From the sequence record PQ356295.1: a stretch of DNA of 64,000 nucleotides. One strand, written 5' to 3'. The DNA comes from Escherichia phage KKE7M. Positions 4,402-37,274 of this stretch are shown one piece after another. A program made the position numbers and the translations under genes. The notes beneath the pieces were generated by a model. That model saw only the letters and a list, made by a program, of their open reading frames with translations, was not told the origin of the DNA and did no database searches. The first letter of the stretch is position 1. Each line of letters opens with the position of its first letter.

Positions 4402-4980
4402 ATGAGCGATTTATTCTACACAGGTGTTGGTAGCAGAGACATTACAGACGAAGAATGGGACACTATGGTAGCTGTTGCAAAATGGTTATCTACATGGTTC
4501 ATTTTGCGATCTGGTAAAGCAGAAGGTGCAGATTCCGCATTTGAATGCGGGGTATATGATAGTGGAAACAATACAAAGAAAGAAATATACATTCCTTGGC
4601 CTTCGTTTAAAGGTAATGAGATAGAGGGAGAGGTTATTGTTCTTGACAGACCCGATAGTGTAAACTATGCTCTAACTTTGCAATATGCAAAAGAATTGCA
4701 TCCAGCTTGGGACAGATTATCTCAAGGTGCTAAAAAATTACATCAAAGAAATATCCACCAAGTTCTTGGCAGAGATCTTGAGAATCCAAAACCATCTTGT
4801 TTTCTTTTAGCTTGTGCAAATACAGATAAGAATGGAGATCCTTTAGGTGGTACAAGAACAGCTTGGATGTTGGCTAAAAAGTTTAATGTTCCTTGTTTTA
4901 ATATTCGAGGTAAAAGTAAAAAACAAATCTTCGAATTTATTAAACCTATTTTAGAGGAGAATGGTCTTGTCCAGAAATAA
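4402..4980 (+). CDS. SLOG-superfamily (DprA/Smf-like Rossmann fold) protein
   Basis: GVGSRDIT ... LRSGKAEGADSAFE resembles the DprA/SLOG nucleotide-binding motif; AAGGAGAA RBS; start trimmed from listed ORF to internal ATG. Confidence 0.5.
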   Translation: MSDLFYTGVGSRDITDEEWDTMVAVAKWLSTWFILRSGKAEGADSAFECGVYDSGNNTKKEIYIPWPSFKGNEIEGEVIVLDRPDSVNYALTLQYAKELHPAWDRLSQGAKKLHQRNIHQVLGRDLENPKPSCFLLACANTDKNGDPLGGTRTAWMLAKKFNVPCFNIRGKSKKQIFEFIKPILEENGLVQK

Positions 4981-5485
4981 TATAAGTGTCATTAAAGATA
5001 GCTTTATTGATGTAACAAACGATATTGTACCTACAATACAATATATAGTTGAGGCACAAGGTTTAAACTTCATACGTGATAAAGTTAAGATTGTTTTTCA
5101 TAACACTCCAGGTTTTGTAATAGTAGGTTCAACAGAAACGATGTATCCTACAGATCTGATCACTTTAGACAAAAACTTAACACAAGAAGAAGTAGAAATT
5201 CTTAACCTCTATTGGTTAGGTTTTAAAAGATATGAGGATACAGCTTTATCCCGAATGTCAACTATTTTAGCTAATATTCTGGTGCGGAAAATTTCTAAAA
5301 TATGGGATGAAGAAAACCCAGATGAAATAATTTTACACTTTGCTAAACCGGAAGACGGGGCATATGATATAGACACATCTGAAATGGCTTATGGGTTTAT
5401 TATTTCTGGTAATGTATTACAGATGGAATCTTTATTGTATGTTGAGACAGTAAAACACAATAACAATTACGAGGAGGTTGTATGA
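4961..5485 (+). CDS. hypothetical protein (174 aa)
   Basis: ORF overlapping upstream 3-prime end; GAGGAGAA upstream. Confidence 0.55.
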   Translation: MVLSRNNISVIKDSFIDVTNDIVPTIQYIVEAQGLNFIRDKVKIVFHNTPGFVIVGSTETMYPTDLITLDKNLTQEEVEILNLYWLGFKRYEDTALSRMSTILANILVRKISKIWDEENPDEIILHFAKPEDGAYDIDTSEMAYGFIISGNVLQMESLLYVETVKHNNNYEEVV

Positions 5486-21950: not shown

Positions 21951-22020
21951 TTACACCTCTCATTAGTAGTTTGTTATGCGCGATATTGTATATCTTATGG
22001 AACACAGTGTACAGACATTT

Positions 22021-22386
22021 CTATTCAATGCAAGCATTATTTGCATCTTCGATTCTGTCTTTCACCCACTGCAATCTCTTTGGGTTGGTATGGCAAGAAT
22101 GTGTCTTACCTTCATCTTCATAACACAGAAGATCATAATTAAAGGGTAGGAAGGAGGATAGCCCAGCACACGTGAATTGCAGTTTCATCTCTTCCAGTGT
22201 TTTACTACGAACCATCTTGAAATATTCTATATCTTCTTCCGTAGGTTTTTTCTTTGACATAGTGGTTGCCAGGTAATCCATAAGGCAATTACACAAACCA
22301 ACATTCTCACGATGCATTGAGGAATGATCTTCCATCCATGCTTTGTAAAATTCTAACAGCAGAGGACTGCTAAGAGGAACACACAT
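22021..22386 (-). CDS. hypothetical protein (about 121 aa), paralog family A
   Basis: Start trimmed to ATG with AAAGGAGTC RBS; LLLEFY ... GLCNCL ... LPFN ... LQWVKDRI motifs. Confidence 0.55.
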   Translation of the reverse strand: MCVPLSSPLLLEFYKAWMEDHSSMHRENVGLCNCLMDYLATTMSKKKPTEEDIEYFKMVRSKTLEEMKLQFTCAGLSSFLPFNYDLLCYEDEGKTHSCHTNPKRLQWVKDRIEDANNACIE

Positions 22387-22747
22387 ATCAGACTCCTTTA
22401 TAAATTTACGTTTCATGCTACACATCATACAGCGTCTTTTCATCTATTACAAGAACAGCAACCTAGAAACATCATTAATAGAGGAATTAGTATAGGATTT
22501 CCCTATCAATTATTCTATATATACCTAATATTTTTAACACACCCCTTTGTACATAATATAGACAAATAAATATCTATGCCACAAAAATTTTCCGGTATAC
22601 CCGATTTATTTCGACACACCCCCTTTTCATAAGCGTAAAGCCAATAATATCAATAACTTGCCGCAAAATACTGCTCGCTTGCGAGAGGTGCTTAACGCGA
22701 TTTTTAGCGCCCCCGATTTCTGCCGACCGTCCCCCTCAAATATCAAT

Positions 22748-22776
22748 GAGAATTATTATCATTTGCATTATCATTC
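22748..22776. promoter_or_regulatory. Fur-box-like AT-rich palindrome
   Basis: GAGAATTATTATCATTTGCATTATCATTC resembles GATAATGATAATCATTATC. Confidence 0.3.
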
Positions 22777-22942
22777 AATGACTTATAAGACTTTTGATTA
22801 TTTTCTGAGCAAGAAAGGCACTACTCACAACAAAACAGATAAATTATAAGTAAATCAATGACTTGGCAAGTCTAAACATCTATATACACCTTGCCAAATG
22901 AAATGATCCTGCGTGAAATAGTGCTACCCGTGGAAGATAGCT

Positions 22943-22963
22943 GATAATGATTATCATTTGCAT
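22943..22963. promoter_or_regulatory. Fur-box-like AT-rich palindrome
   Basis: GATAATGATTATCATTTGCAT. Confidence 0.3.
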
Positions 22964-23272
22964 ATTTTCTATACTATAAAACTACCTAAAAATCAAGATA
23001 ATTCTGATTTATTGCGCTTTTAAGAGAATAGGCTCAACAAATAGGCTATAACTATGCTCAACAAATGATAGGTTATATGGGGCAATAGTATGAAAAACCA
23101 TCTATTCAGATATAAATAATTTTGCGCAATAATGGTGATATTTTTCTTGACAAGAAAGATTTCTTTGTGTTCACATAGCGTCCCCTGGAAGGTGGCGCAT
23201 TATGATCATCAATGTCATTGTTCACGATGTTTATTATTGAATAGCTTATTATATGTAGCTTATATTATAGCC

Positions 23273-23456
23273 AATGTTCCAAACATTAGCTAATAATAAC
23301 GCACCGCAACAATGTAAGGGATACAATATACCATGTATATTGTTGCGCTTGCAATTGTTGCAAGCTACATAAGCACAAATAATAACTATCGGTGATGGTT
23401 ATTATGTGGGGTGTGTAGTTGCGTTATTATTAGCCGCCTATGTGTCCGGCATAGGC
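23273..23456. other. nested inverted-repeat (multi-hairpin) structure in gene-free region
   Basis: 15-bp perfect inverted repeat GCTAATAATAACGCA / TGCGTTATTATTAGC encloses three internal hairpins; a fourth GCCTATG / CATAGGC hairpin follows. Confidence 0.5.
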
Positions 23457-23499
23457 TGCTAATGATACGCTTGCTAATTATATTTCTTGTTATAATTAT

Positions 23500-23826
23500 T
23501 GTATGAAATGATTACGGTATGAAATGATTATTTAGGTAATAGATAGTAAGGTAAAGATTAGATCATAAATAGATAGGATATTAATTATTTAGTAATGTTA
23601 CTAACAATTTAATAGTTACTTTGTGCAACAATTCGATAGATTATAGTTATAGTTTTAAAGGTTAGATAGATTATATTTAGCTTGGTAATGATTTATATTA
23701 GTTATTGTTGTTTAATATAAGGTTATCAATGAGATAGTAACAGTAAGTTATAAATAAAGGTGAAATAATTAGCTTTAATTTAGTTAGATAACTTATTATT
23801 TTATAGGTTAGATGGTCATAAGTTAA
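23500..23826. repeat. AT-rich iteron-like short repeats
   Basis: Dense reiteration of TAGATAG / GGTTAGAT / GATTATA words in about 330 bp without ORFs. Confidence 0.35.
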
Positions 23827-23899
23827 GAATGATTATCATTATTGCATTATGCAGTTTATTGCATAAATAATCAGCTATAAATGAGAATGATTATTATTT
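23827..23899. promoter_or_regulatory. pair of Fur-box-like palindromes
   Basis: GAATGATTATCATTATTGCATTATGC and GAGAATGATTATTATTT. Confidence 0.3.
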
Positions 23900-24104
23900 A
23901 AGAGGAAAGACAAGAAAAAGGCTGTTTTTGCCAGATAGTTACATGGAGAAATTAAAAATAAGCGGTCTAAAACACGTTGTAAGCGCCTTATGATCTTCAT
24001 GGTATGGTTGTTCATCTGCTCCTTGATTAGCTCGATACCGCGATCTATTCACTTTTTTCGGTGAACGTTTTTGATAGGTAAAAGCTATCATCTTTATTTA
24101 GGTA

Positions 24105-34651: not shown

Positions 34652-34918
34652 ATGACAAATACTCCTTTACATCTCATGCACTCATTGGGCTGGCAAGGCG
34701 GCACGGTGCACCAGGTAGCAAGCGCAACGGGCTTAAAGGTTGAAACCGTTCTCAACCTGGGCGATCATAAGGTGGAAGAGATAGATCATTTTGATACGTT
34801 CGCAAATGGTTATCTATGGGCTTGCAGTGGCGGCGGGGAAAGCAAGATCCCACCAGGGGCGCGGGGCGACATGTATTTTTGGTTAGGTGTCCTATCCTGG
34901 CAAGAAAACAAAAAATAA
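34652..34918 (+). CDS. hypothetical protein (88 aa), GC-rich codon usage
   Basis: Forward ORF in otherwise gene-free region; weak RBS; composition differs from neighbours. Confidence 0.4.
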   Translation: MTNTPLHLMHSLGWQGGTVHQVASATGLKVETVLNLGDHKVEEIDHFDTFANGYLWACSGGGESKIPPGARGDMYFWLGVLSWQENKK

Positions 34919-34921
34919 TCT

Positions 34922-34950
34922 TGACAAGCCCAGGGATCGGGCTTATACTG
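34922..34950 (+). promoter_or_regulatory. sigma70-like promoter (TTGACA-17-TATACT) driving GC-rich non-coding transcript
   Basis: Consensus -35/-10 with no credible ORF downstream for more than 700 nt. Confidence 0.45.
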
Positions 34951-35180
34951 TTTTACATACAGAAGAGGAAGCGCCACCCCCACGGCGTAAAGGCGGGGCT
35001 AACATACCAGGGGGGCACTGGTTGGAAGGTTGATCGCCGGTAGCTCGTCTAAAATAAATTTGTAAAGAAATGTAAAGATAAAAATAATCGCTTGCTTTTG
35101 TTGTTGGTTATGCTATTCTTATTGTATGGCGAGGGGACACGGGAGCGCGAGACAAACACCACCCCTGCGCGTTATTCTCT

Positions 35181-35292
35181 AAATGAGAAAAATTCTCATT
35201 TGCTAACGATTCTCATTCTCTTACTGAGAATGATTATCACTTACATAATTAAATGATAATGATTCTCATTTACAAATGAGAATGATTATCAT
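35181..35292. promoter_or_regulatory. cluster of Fur-box-like palindromes
   Basis: AAATGAGAAAAATTCTCATTT, GAGAATGATTATCAC and AAATGATAATGATTCTCATTTACAAATGAGAATGATTATCAT. Confidence 0.35.
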
Positions 35293-35313
35293 ACGCACAC
35301 CTATAAAAACACG

Positions 35314-35520
35314 AAATTGAACTTTTCATTTTTGATTTTTCTACGGAAAAAGGCAAAAAAACTTTAAATAAACTGGGGAATTTTTAAAAAATTGAAGTTT
35401 TCATTTTCAAAATCTGGATAGAAATACATACAAAAACTTTAAATAATTTTGACCAAACTTGAACTTTTCATTTTCTAAATTTGTACCCAAAAATCTGTAA
35501 AAACTTTAAATAATTTTGTA
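35314..35520. repeat. three tandem direct repeats of about 67 bp
   Basis: Units start at about 35314, 35387 and 35455; each is AAAtTGAAcTTTTCATTTT ... AAAAACTTTAAATAA. Confidence 0.6.
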
Positions 35521-35732
35521 CTTTTTATAAAAATGATTTTACTGTTCTGTTATAAGTAGTAGTTAAGAGATAGTATGTCTTTTAAAGATCAGATACCATA
35601 GTCCAACAAACAAATTAAATACTTTATTAACAGGGTATAGAATACTACTTACTCTGGATATATTATTCAGAGGGTGAATTTCCGTACATGAAACCCACAC
35701 CCCTTTTTATAAAAATAAAAATTTTCAAAATA

Positions 35733-36284
35733 TCAGGAAATATCAGATTGTGCTTTTAGATAAACAGCAAGGTCTGTATGCCATTTTCCTAAAAGATTTT
35801 GTCCTTTCCAACAATCCTTATTTTCCACGTCACGATCCCACATCCCCATTTTGATACCATAAATAGAATCATAAGGGCTTGCCTCTACGAACTCCTTATC
35901 TGCGTAAGCGATAAGTTTATTTTTGAGATCTTCATTTTGTGTGTATTTAAGATACAAACCACGCTTGACAATCTTCTCCCGTAAAGAAGCCCAAGTATCT
36001 TCATCGTAATCTTTAACTAATCTACCTAGTCGCTTATAATATGCCTGTTCTTTTTCTCCTGTATATCTTAGATCTCCGGTTAAAATAGAAGATGCAATGT
36101 TGTAATCATAAAACAAACATGCTTTTCTCCACATCATATATTGTTCCACACAAGTAAATTCAACAGAACTTGTAATAGAATTATTATACTTGGGTGCTAA
36201 AGGTTCAATAAAAGATGATAGATACCAGTTGCTAAATTCATCTTTTGCTGAAAAGAAGAACACATACTTATCAGTAATCCGCAT
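35733..36284 (-). CDS. NADAR (YbiA-like, DUF1768) domain protein
   Basis: FFF...FSNWY.S.F ... EQYMMWRKA.LFYD pattern of the NADAR family; AAGGAG RBS. Confidence 0.7.
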   Translation of the reverse strand: MRITDKYVFFFSAKDEFSNWYLSSFIEPLAPKYNNSITSSVEFTCVEQYMMWRKACLFYDYNIASSILTGDLRYTGEKEQAYYKRLGRLVKDYDEDTWASLREKIVKRGLYLKYTQNEDLKNKLIAYADKEFVEASPYDSIYGIKMGMWDRDVENKDCWKGQNLLGKWHTDLAVYLKAQSDIS

Positions 36285-37274
36285 TTACATCTCCTTACTG
36301 TATACTAATTTGCCACCATATTGTGTAATAATTTTTTGAAGATTTTCCAAATCAGAAACACTTACTGTTTCTGTATAACCGTCTTTCAACTCTCTTTCCG
36401 TTAAAATACCAGTTTTTAATTTTTTCTTTATAGCTCTTTCAGCAGCCTTACATTGTTTTACTGTGCTAAAATCATATAAACAAATACGCTCCATAGGAAA
36501 CATATTACGGCTATTTTGAATTTTTAATCGTCTATCACTATCTTTAGCTATACCAAACTTAAGAGCAACTATAATATTATCATCCTTAACAATATTAATA
36601 TATAACTGCTGCTGACTATGACCAGCACACATAGGACAACCTCGACCGAGGCTTAATAAATTATGAGCACTCCCTATCTGCTCACCATGCACAAGACAAA
36701 AATATTTAAACTTACCTATAGAAGAGGGTTTGGTAATCCAATCTACCCAGACATACCCTTTCCCTTCTACTTCCTTTTTTACCCTATAGGTGATCTGGTC
36801 TTCTGTATACCGATAGTTCCCACAACGACACGGAATATACCCTCGTTTAAGGTTATCTCCTTCAGAGTAAAATTTACCATCACAAACACCTGCTTGAACA
36901 TATTCATCATGAGAGCAAACAGGACATTCAACCATCCAGATAATATTCCTACATCCTTTACCCCGTGTTCCTGTGTTAGTGAAGATAGTGCCTTCCTTAA
37001 ATTCCCCTGTAGAAAAGAAATCTGCAATATGTTGATCGTCGGACATTGTTTGTGACTTCCTTATATTCTTCCTCCTACATTGTGGACAACCGCTACCACA
37101 TTTAAAACTGTTAATACTTGTAGTATCCCATTTATAACCACAATGGCACAACAAATCAAGTTTTGTGTGGACCCCTTTCCATTGTCCCGTCCATCCTAAG
37201 ATTTGGATTTGCTTACTCTCTGCTATTGGTATACACTCTTCTTTATATTGTTCCCATGATTTTGGTGCTGCCAT
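36285..37274 (-). CDS. Cys-rich zinc-ribbon repeat protein with C-terminal T5orf172/GIY-YIG-like domain
   Basis: Four or more CxxC pairs (GSGCPQC, ECPVCSHDEY, IPCRCGNY, GRGCPMCAG) then KFGIAKDSDRRLKIQNS ... AERAIKKKL ... DGYTETV; AAGAGGAG RBS. Confidence 0.55.
   Translation of the reverse strand: MAAPKSWEQYKEECIPIAESKQIQILGWTGQWKGVHTKLDLLCHCGYKWDTTSINSFKCGSGCPQCRRKNIRKSQTMSDDQHIADFFSTGEFKEGTIFTNTGTRGKGCRNIIWMVECPVCSHDEYVQAGVCDGKFYSEGDNLKRGYIPCRCGNYRYTEDQITYRVKKEVEGKGYVWVDWITKPSSIGKFKYFCLVHGEQIGSAHNLLSLGRGCPMCAGHSQQQLYINIVKDDNIIVALKFGIAKDSDRRLKIQNSRNMFPMERICLYDFSTVKQCKAAERAIKKKLKTGILTERELKDGYTETVSVSDLENLQKIITQYGGKLVYSKEM

Follow-up and report, generated by a model that had tools for sequence, protein, structure and literature searches.

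Downstream of a consensus sigma-70 promoter, the phage DNA studied here carries the predicted gene of a structured non-coding RNA, designated RNA1, homologues of which, as recognised by sequence comparison, are conserved in three groups of lytic phages. We rate RNA1 as a new, uncatalogued family among the phage-encoded small structured RNAs. The favoured reading, to which a probability of about 60% is given, is that RNA1 is a stand-alone, early, structured small RNA (sRNA), in which a pseudoknotted scaffold would present a near-invariant strand to a partner that infections of Aeromonas and of enterobacteria have in common. The window (the whole stretch of 64,000 nucleotides that was analysed) matched Escherichia phage 92CQ at 100% identity, and phi92 and other Justusliebigvirus members (Stephanstirmvirinae) at about 97%; it belongs to a phi92-like coliphage of the genus Justusliebigvirus. 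The RNA1 locus lies among minus-strand genes, which occupy about 10 to 40 kb of the window, and begins with the following features.

34652..34918, plus strand: upstream ORF of 88 aa, phi92 gp224 homologue (phrog_19316), the sole plus-strand gene within the long minus-strand block
34921-34926 (−35) and 34944-34949 (−10), plus strand: promoter P1, TTGACA-17-TATACT, 11 of 12 consensus positions
34926..34944, with T-run to 34954, plus strand: hairpin AAGCCC-AGGGATC-GGGCTT inside the promoter P1 spacer, then the T-run ATACTGTTTT; terminator-like
34956 to about 35085 (about 110–130 nt), plus strand: RNA1, structured non-coding RNA, supported by covariance model, pair counts and MAFFT/RNAalifold

The TTGACA-17-TATACT sequence given in the preliminary description was recovered, and its coordinates required correction by one base to the left, from 34922..34950 to 34921..34949; the predicted transcription start lies near 34956. 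Sites with at least 11 of 12 promoter consensus positions numbered 18 in the window vs. 4.0 in block shuffles, and therefore the phage carries many consensus promoters, promoter P1 among them; strong host-type promoters are, as judged from sequence, in use by the phage, and promoter P1 is predicted to be one of these. In the true RNA1 homologues a sigma-70 promoter (9–12 of 12 matches) was found with its −10 end 64–77 nt before the invariant core, the distance being 102 and 114 nt in two homologues carrying an insertion; one environmental contig (L070) was the sole true homologue devoid of a promoter of at least 9/12 at that distance. Unrelated pattern hits gave promoter scores of 6–8 at random distances. 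The hexamers of the homologue promoters were conserved and the spacer was freely variable. The spacer hairpin with its T-run looks like the terminator of the upstream ORF nested in promoter P1, and this hairpin-in-spacer layout was also present in CB7, CR3 and the second RNA1 copy of phage Ro1 and was frequent in relatives. Promoter P1 and the conservation of RNA1 are firmly indicated by these comparisons of sequence.

By the sequence criteria applied, the RNA1 region is non-coding. The 814 nt following the 34652-34918 ORF are devoid of annotation in phi92 and phage alia, with the exception of two 'repeat_region' features in alia. More than 700 nt free of a credible reading frame had been claimed downstream of the promoter, and the count obtained here was 783 nt; the sole plus-strand ORF of at least 30 aa starting after promoter P1 (34950 to 35733) was a 54-aa ORF with a TTG start at 35092..35256, which spans a second promoter (promoter P2) and the palindromes listed further below. 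Translation of the region, named in the preliminary description as an outcome that would speak against an RNA gene, is not indicated by the sequences: no frame is conserved, stops occur in all three plus frames of the stretch 34949-35066 (2–3 each), and the homologues are 104, 109–112, 114–116 and 118–120 nt long, differing by non-multiples of three. It is true that the 92CQ record annotates ORFs over the RNA1 region and that one minus-strand frame is open across the element of about 118 nt in 22 of the 48 homologues, as would be expected if a small unannotated protein gene were present. However, one of the 92CQ-annotated ORFs has the TTG of the −35 hexamer as its start codon, no minus-strand ORF of at least 30 aa crosses the element in the window, the lengths vary as given, and conservation and covariation are far above chance, so that such a gene, or a fortuitous promoter preceding junk DNA, is regarded as extremely improbable.

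The start of the predicted transcript was GC-rich, as had been proposed: 60.7% over the 89 nt of 34957-35045 vs. 37.4% for the window (top 0.03% of equal-size windows), and 50% over 34957-35076 (top 1.5%). RNA1 consists of a purine-rich 5′ leader (34956-34971), a folded part and an AU-rich tail reaching to about 35085, with these elements.

34972-34975 with 34984-34987, plus strand: hairpin P1, CGCC/GGCG
34979-34982 with 34995-34998, plus strand: pseudoknot of the hairpin P1 loop with a downstream NNGG, compensatory changes
34993-34994 and 34999-35000 with 35027-35030, plus strand: candidate helix P2 (2+2 bp), RC..CU with AGGU
35003-35009 with 35019-35024, plus strand: hairpin P3 with a bulged U at 35005, CAUACCAG/CUGGUUG
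35025-35026, plus strand: fixed 2-nt junction from hairpin P3 to the right strand of helix P2, N-A, the A invariant in 48 of 48 sequences
35026..35043, plus strand: near-invariant strand AAGGUUGAUCGCCGGUAG (consensus AAGGUNRAUCGCCGGNAG), from column frequencies in 48 sequences
35061..35079, plus strand: TGTAAAGA as a direct repeat of two copies 11 nt apart, situated either within the RNA1 tail or immediately before promoter P2, from reading of the sequence

The TGTAAAGA repeats were kept in most enterobacterial-phage relatives. A covariance model was built from 30 sequences and 48 distinct sequences were then aligned with it; in the window it matched one copy only, at 34949-35066, with 125.5 bits. 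In the 48-sequence alignment 88.9% of the cells of hairpin P1, the pseudoknot and hairpin P3 were paired and 10 of the 14 pairs had changed on both sides. The covariation score was 0.262 vs. 0.078 in shuffles, none of the 500 shuffles reaching 0.262, and slid controls, in which the partner was moved by 1–3 columns, gave at most 0.042. Hairpin P1 is formed in Aeromonas phages by GGAC or AGAC with GUCU, and an A-rich linker follows it. The pseudoknot pairings observed were CCCC/GGGG, CCAA/UUGG, CCAG/CUGG and CCAU/AUGG, the third pair being C-G in 34 sequences and A-U in 10. Hairpin P3 was free to vary in sequence and length, down to a minimum of three base pairs capped by UUCG, and all 6 of its 6 pairs were compensatory. 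RNAalifold applied to a plain, unfitted MAFFT alignment likewise recovered hairpin P3, with 6 of 15 predicted pairs changed on both sides. The G-U pairs of the fold exist on the plus strand only. The fold composed of hairpin P1, the pseudoknot and hairpin P3 is well supported by this comparative evidence. Helix P2, which contains the pseudoknot strand inside it, was 99.5% paired and hardly varied, so that covariation speaks neither for nor against this candidate helix.

Folding of the single sequence was uninformative for both strands (z = −0.04 and −0.02), and therefore the structural evidence is comparative only; structure prediction, recommended as a check in the preliminary description, thus returned a z of about 0 for the single sequence but a supported fold for the 48 sequences. 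The two hairpins quoted there fared differently: GCGCC-ACCCCCAC-GGCG corresponds to hairpin P1 and is compensatory, whereas GGCGGGGC...GGGGGGC is unsupported, its GGGG being paired with the hairpin P1 loop. A closing helix of the 5′ leader with the 3′ tail was rejected, being 68% paired and not above shuffles or slid controls. An alternative helix proposed by RNAalifold, in which the GGCG of the hairpin P1 3′ strand pairs with a downstream CGCC, was dropped because it never varies and is broken in the Aeromonas phages, where hairpin P1 is compensated instead. When all column pairs were screened for additional covarying helices, only phylogenetic noise emerged. The invariance of the 35026..35043 strand is partly built in for the hits from IMG/VR and metagenomes, which were collected with a pattern drawn from this strand, and it holds too in the relatives found by pattern-independent BLAST; the strand is a candidate functional module of RNA1.

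A sensitive blastn search returned matches in 234 phage records. In the distant Vequintavirinae (Cronobacter phages CR3 and CR8, Salmonella phage PVP-SE1, Klebsiella/Raoultella Mydovirus, and Pectobacterium and Erwinia phages) the similarity narrowed to 34952-35078 of the window with 80–88% identity, far beyond that of the flanks, its left edge coinciding with the predicted transcription start. More variants came from pattern scans of IMG/VR and of metagenomes, among them Aeromonas Plateaulakevirus phages such as 2L372D and 4L372D. Among bacterial genomes, one per species, the sole return was a phage contig binned into a MAG, and 5,426 E. coli genomes searched by blastn contained no RNA1 match; RNA1 is therefore restricted to lytic phages. 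A covariance-model search for an RNA1 paralogue in the other non-coding stretch of the window, at 22.5–24 kb, found none.

In Aeromonas phage 2L372D the unit consists of a promoter (TTGCTT-17-TATAAT), RNA1 and then an intrinsic terminator (GCCAGCTTGTTAGGCTGGC+AATTGTTTG), with a predicted transcript of about 145 nt, and it lies in the roughly 290 nt separating its minus-strand neighbours, where a second GC-rich block, palindromes and repeats are lacking. At the position upstream of RNA1, relatives carry either a gp224-type ORF or an unrelated DUF7170 ORF, and the Aeromonas phages carry none. The lone unit of 2L372D and the variable upstream ORF therefore mark RNA1 as a self-contained gene, separable on this sequence evidence from the neighbouring elements. 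The idea that RNA1 depends on the protein of the upstream ORF as an obligate partner was rejected, as different families or no ORF occupy its position.

The small-RNA proposal of the preliminary description is accordingly strengthened at the level of sequence, by the conserved promoter distance, the conservation of the transcript, the three compensated helices, the absence of a frame and the promoter-to-terminator unit of the Aeromonas phages. Its other proposal, a long leader, was not borne out: no co-directional gene follows RNA1 in the annotated relatives examined, an inserted homing endonuclease excepted. The next gene rightward is a convergent NADAR-domain gene (35733-36284, minus strand), and a convergent gene also follows the RNA1 terminator in the Aeromonas phages. 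A riboswitch or cis-regulatory leader was rejected on the same ground, the next gene being convergent both here and in relatives. In the Aeromonas phages RNA1 stands alone with its own promoter and terminator, and it is therefore read as an sRNA, not a leader.

The exception is Raoultella phage Ro1 (L011, 1999-2856), in which an HNH gene (2122-2715) is inserted in RNA1 just after GGATCGC, behind the RNA1 promoter, and is followed at 2723-2856 by a second complete, diverged RNA1 with its own promoter TTGACA-17-CATAAT. This arrangement suggests homing into the invariant strand and retention of an intact RNA1 copy by the phage; together with the conservation in three lineages, the intact second copy beside the endonuclease insertion hints that RNA1 is important to the phage. 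In an IMG/VR contig of 146,850 bp (L016), a 154-aa plus-strand ORF at 4978-5442 starts inside the second GC-rich block described below; by eye it resembles an HNH-type endonuclease (motif ...NNCRFITTSENQRE...) and appears to be another mobile gene using the rightward promoters.

The orientation of RNA1, which always points against its neighbours, might be taken to mean that the locus is a cis element acting on minus-strand transcription, either as an insulator or terminator or as an antisense to read-through from the right-hand minus-strand genes, with the plus-strand RNA being a by-product or the locus working by convergent transcription only. On the minus strand a pyrimidine- or U-rich tract comes after the complement of hairpin P1, an arrangement flagged as terminator-like, and the only strong hybrid in the window was the perfect antisense at RNA1's own locus. 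The hairpin P1 complement is, however, a stem of 4 bp only, and interference needs neither covariation of the pseudoknot and hairpin P3, nor G-U pairs confined to the plus strand, nor an invariant strand; the Aeromonas phages, moreover, already have a bidirectional terminator between RNA1 and the upstream minus-strand gene. We consider this explanation quite improbable.

The homology search against known RNAs that had been recommended was run with Rfam 15 (4227 models), which gave no match for RNA1: none at the gathering threshold over the whole window, three chance-level hits at E ≤ 10 over 34850-35250, none of them plausible, and no hit on the RNA1 element at 14 homologous loci. ARAGORN reported 0 tRNA or tmRNA genes in the window. 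The stretch GCCGGUAGCUCG recalls, to our reading, the 5′ part of a tRNA, with an invariant G in RNA1 at what we take to be the equivalent of the universal A14; the resemblances to tRNA-fMet and tRNA-Sec are presumably coincidental. A search of the literature found no description of RNA1, and neither the papers searched nor the expression atlas yielded a transcript record for any of these phages.

RNA1 is like the stand-alone sRNAs (Hfq- or ProQ-type) in having its own sigma-70 promoter, a length of about 110–150 nt and no ORF, in the AU-rich stretch that precedes the terminator hairpin and U-rich tail of the Aeromonas-phage homologues, and in its short invariant strand, which could serve as a seed. 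A promoter and terminator of its own and the absence of a co-directional ORF, the features looked for in a trans-acting sRNA, were all found, the terminator being that of the Aeromonas phages. RNA1 differs from stand-alone sRNAs in being a pseudoknotted scaffold kept over three phage lineages, far more constrained than typical base-pairing sRNAs, and in that no terminator, which is Rho-independent in sRNAs, was found for it in this window (intrinsic terminators on the plus strand from 34950 to 35700: none).

H-type pseudoknot aptamers with an A-rich third loop include preQ1-I and SAM-II. The 5′ half of RNA1 (hairpin P1, A-rich linker and loop-to-3′ pairing) has the same H-type layout, whereas an Rfam match, a downstream gene and an expression platform are lacking in RNA1, and hairpin P3 and the invariant strand are additional to it. 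A closer likeness in element order is offered by the pistol ribozyme (RF02679), described as a P1 hairpin, an A-rich linker, a pseudoknot of the P1 loop with the strand between P2 and P3, a P3 hairpin and a strictly 2-nt P3–P2 junction, usually G-U, at which cleavage occurs (PMC4604425). RNA1 resembles it in the order of elements, in the A-rich linker, in having a loop pseudoknot and a junction of fixed length (2 nt, N-A, in 48 of 48 sequences) and in the association with phages, which is common to many self-cleaving ribozymes (PMC4604425). From these features one could propose a catalytic or ligand-binding RNA, namely a pistol-like self-cleaving ribozyme cutting at the 2-nt junction and freeing the invariant strand, or a small-molecule aptamer. 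Unlike pistol, RNA1 has a pseudoknot of 3–4 bp instead of 6, a helix P2 of only 2+2 bp split by the pseudoknot strand, a junction of N-A instead of G-U, and a long, strongly conserved strand that continues 3′ of helix P2. No Rfam ribozyme or riboswitch model, including RF02679 with the ten highly conserved nucleotides of pistol, gave a hit at E ≤ 10 on the element or on the 14 homologous loci, and the riboswitch version would have no downstream gene to control. The proposal is held to be very unlikely. A related and wider idea, which we find doubtful on the sequences at hand, is that RNA1 represents a new fold class with a pistol-like pseudoknot, functioning either as a ribozyme that frees the invariant strand or as an early decoy or sponge against a conserved host factor or defence.

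A non-coding RNA with a proven anti-defence role, pseudo-ToxI, is known from the rV5-like Pectobacterium phage phiTE (PMC3475682), and it shows that rV5-like phages deploy RNAs against host systems (PMC3475682). It is, like RNA1, a non-coding RNA locus of the same phage group; it consists of tandem 36-nt repeats (PMC3475682), whereas RNA1 is a single pseudoknotted RNA. An identity of RNA1 with the pseudo-ToxI of phiTE was rejected, both the locus and the architecture being different.

In the favoured reading, that of a stand-alone structured sRNA, host RNA polymerase would transcribe RNA1 from the consensus sigma-70 promoter, against the direction of all neighbouring genes, and the RNA would probably be made early in infection, as the promoter is of the consensus host type. 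The transcript would fold into hairpin P1, the loop–NNGG pseudoknot, the A-rich linker, the probable short helix P2 and the bulged hairpin P3, and this scaffold would present the near-invariant strand, followed by the AU-rich tail. The invariant strand would then act in trans on a partner common to Aeromonas and enterobacterial infections; the candidates are, on the host side, a conserved macromolecule or RNA and, on the phage side, a conserved factor. Transcription, early timing, action in trans and the partner are all inferred here from sequence; RNA1 is probably trans-acting, and that it is regulatory is an assumption. A search for targets of the invariant strand in the 64-kb window gave a best hybrid of −26.7 kcal/mol, within the range of shuffled cores (−24.5 to −30.1 kcal/mol), the antisense at the RNA1 locus mentioned above being the sole strong hybrid.

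Phages of the rV5, phi92, PVP-SE1 and CR3 types are widely isolated and are used in therapy and biocontrol, and their early regions are mostly unannotated. If the favoured reading is true, host take-over or counter-defence by these phages would involve a hitherto undescribed participant, a deeply conserved pseudoknotted RNA made from a consensus promoter of the host type. RNA1 would also be a new RNA family for the databases; it is short, has a testable fold and an obvious candidate functional strand, and occurs in phages with tractable E. coli K-12 hosts.

To the right of RNA1 follow several elements whose order was kept in relatives.

35092..35119, plus strand: second promoter P2, TTGCTT-16-TATTCT, from reading of the sequence
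35124..35177, plus strand: second conserved GC-rich block, RNA2, 67% GC over 35124-35172
35184..35291, no strand assigned: five 7-1-7 palindromes TGAGAATnATTCTCA, Fur-box-like and operator-like
35314..35534, no strand assigned: a direct repeat of about 70 nt present three times, all copies with TTGAACTTTTCATTTT and AAAACTTTAAATAA; local GC content about 24%

Promoter P2 reads TTGCAA, TTGATC or TTGACC with TATATT, TATTAT or GATAAT in relatives, with a varying spacer. RNA2 contains a conserved apical sequence GAGACAAACACC (35149-35160), then UUAUUCUCU, and was missing from the Aeromonas phages. Folded individually, the RNA2 blocks of most relatives gave similar imperfect hairpins, the helix register shifting between clades, and RNAalifold gave no consensus structure for them; an imperfect hairpin is a plausible model of RNA2. 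In the relatives CR3, PVP-SE1 and the Klebsiella and Erwinia phages the palindromes take the form AATGAGAATGATTCTCATT at 29-nt spacing. Within the window, TTGAACTTTTCATTTT and AAAACTTTAAATAA are confined to the three repeats; CR3, 4MG, Av-05 and an Erwinia phage also have three repeats, with a period of 63–78 nt and a different sequence, and many repeats of other genera contain AAAAATTTTTT tracts. The repeats could be iterons, bent DNA or a DNA-unwinding region, and on our analysis the region from 35092 onward (promoter, GC-rich block, palindromes and repeats) may be a regulatory or origin region.

Transcription-dependent origins include the T7 primary origin, T4 oriF and oriG, and ColE1 RNA II. 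By analogy, RNA1 could be read as an origin-activating or primer transcript, promoters P1 and P2 firing toward the palindromes and the AT-rich triple repeat as a replication origin, with the G-rich RNA forming an R-loop or priming DNA synthesis, or with transcription opening the origin. The arrangement of two tandem rightward promoters, operator-like palindromes, three directly repeated units of about 70 nt and a stretch with 24% GC resembles those systems in its tandem promoters into an AT-rich repeated region and its G-rich transcript; it was kept across genera even though the repeat sequence differs, and in the Klebsiella-phage relatives the repeats are immediately preceded by a third rightward promoter. 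The GC skew was positive over 34700-35200, and the rV5 genome paper, whose skew analysis located no origin, draws this stretch as a 'non-coding' box. The linkage of RNA1 to the AT-rich or iteron region is, however, not obligatory, as it is present in the window and in Vequintavirinae and absent in Plateaulakevirus, where RNA1 ends at its own terminator and repeats, palindromes and the AT-rich tract are lacking. The skew showed no inflection at the locus and followed gene orientation, a primer needs neither a compensated pseudoknot nor an invariant strand, and the T7, T4 and ColE1 RNA II primers are without the conserved tertiary fold of RNA1. An origin or control region would account for the promoters, not for the RNA1 fold, and an origin transcript is judged an unlikely explanation of RNA1. 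The adjacent promoters, Fur-box-like operators and triple repeats are nevertheless of interest in themselves: they may constitute the origin or control region for which earlier genome papers could give no location.

Several minor observations concern the neighbourhood of RNA1 and its relatives. In the gp224-type upstream protein (34652-34918) the segment LGWQGGTVHQVA-ATGL-V was kept across genera and the C-terminus was variable; by eye the segment resembles a helix-turn-helix, Pfam contained no family match for the protein, and it might be a small DNA-binding regulator. To the right of the locus (35733-37274) the NADAR-domain protein gene is followed by a CapR/T5orf172-type endonuclease gene; proteins of the NADAR family reverse ADP-ribosylation. 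In Klebsiella phage K45PH128C2 (L004, 1574-2269) GenBank annotates tRNA-Lys, tRNA-Ile and tRNA-Met beside the RNA1 element, and these annotations are probably misplaced because a permissive Rfam scan of the locus detected no tRNA. Several near-identical records name Campylobacter, Acinetobacter, Pseudomonas or Serratia as the phage host and yet are 90–98% identical to coliphages, and their host labels or isolation histories may be unreliable.

The palindromes, as distinct from RNA1, matched the 19-bp Fur consensus GATAATGATAATCATTATC at up to 16 of 19 positions within 35184-35291 and at 17 of 19 at 22943, and are putative Fur boxes as recognised by their sequence; sites with at least 14 of 19 matches numbered 37 in the window vs. 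7.2 in shuffles. The family-wide palindrome half-site TGAGAAT is one base off the Fur half-site. The palindromes could serve a phage regulator as operators, or they could bind or titrate host Fur. A second cluster lies at 22747-22761, 22942-22956, 23824-23838 and 23882-23896, with a perfect 7-1-7 site, TGATAATnATTATCA, at 22942. This cluster falls in about 1.5 kb (22500-24000) devoid of a long ORF, with 32.6% GC over 22001-24000 and a GC skew near zero, where the Fur-box-like sites are often followed by ATTTGCAT.
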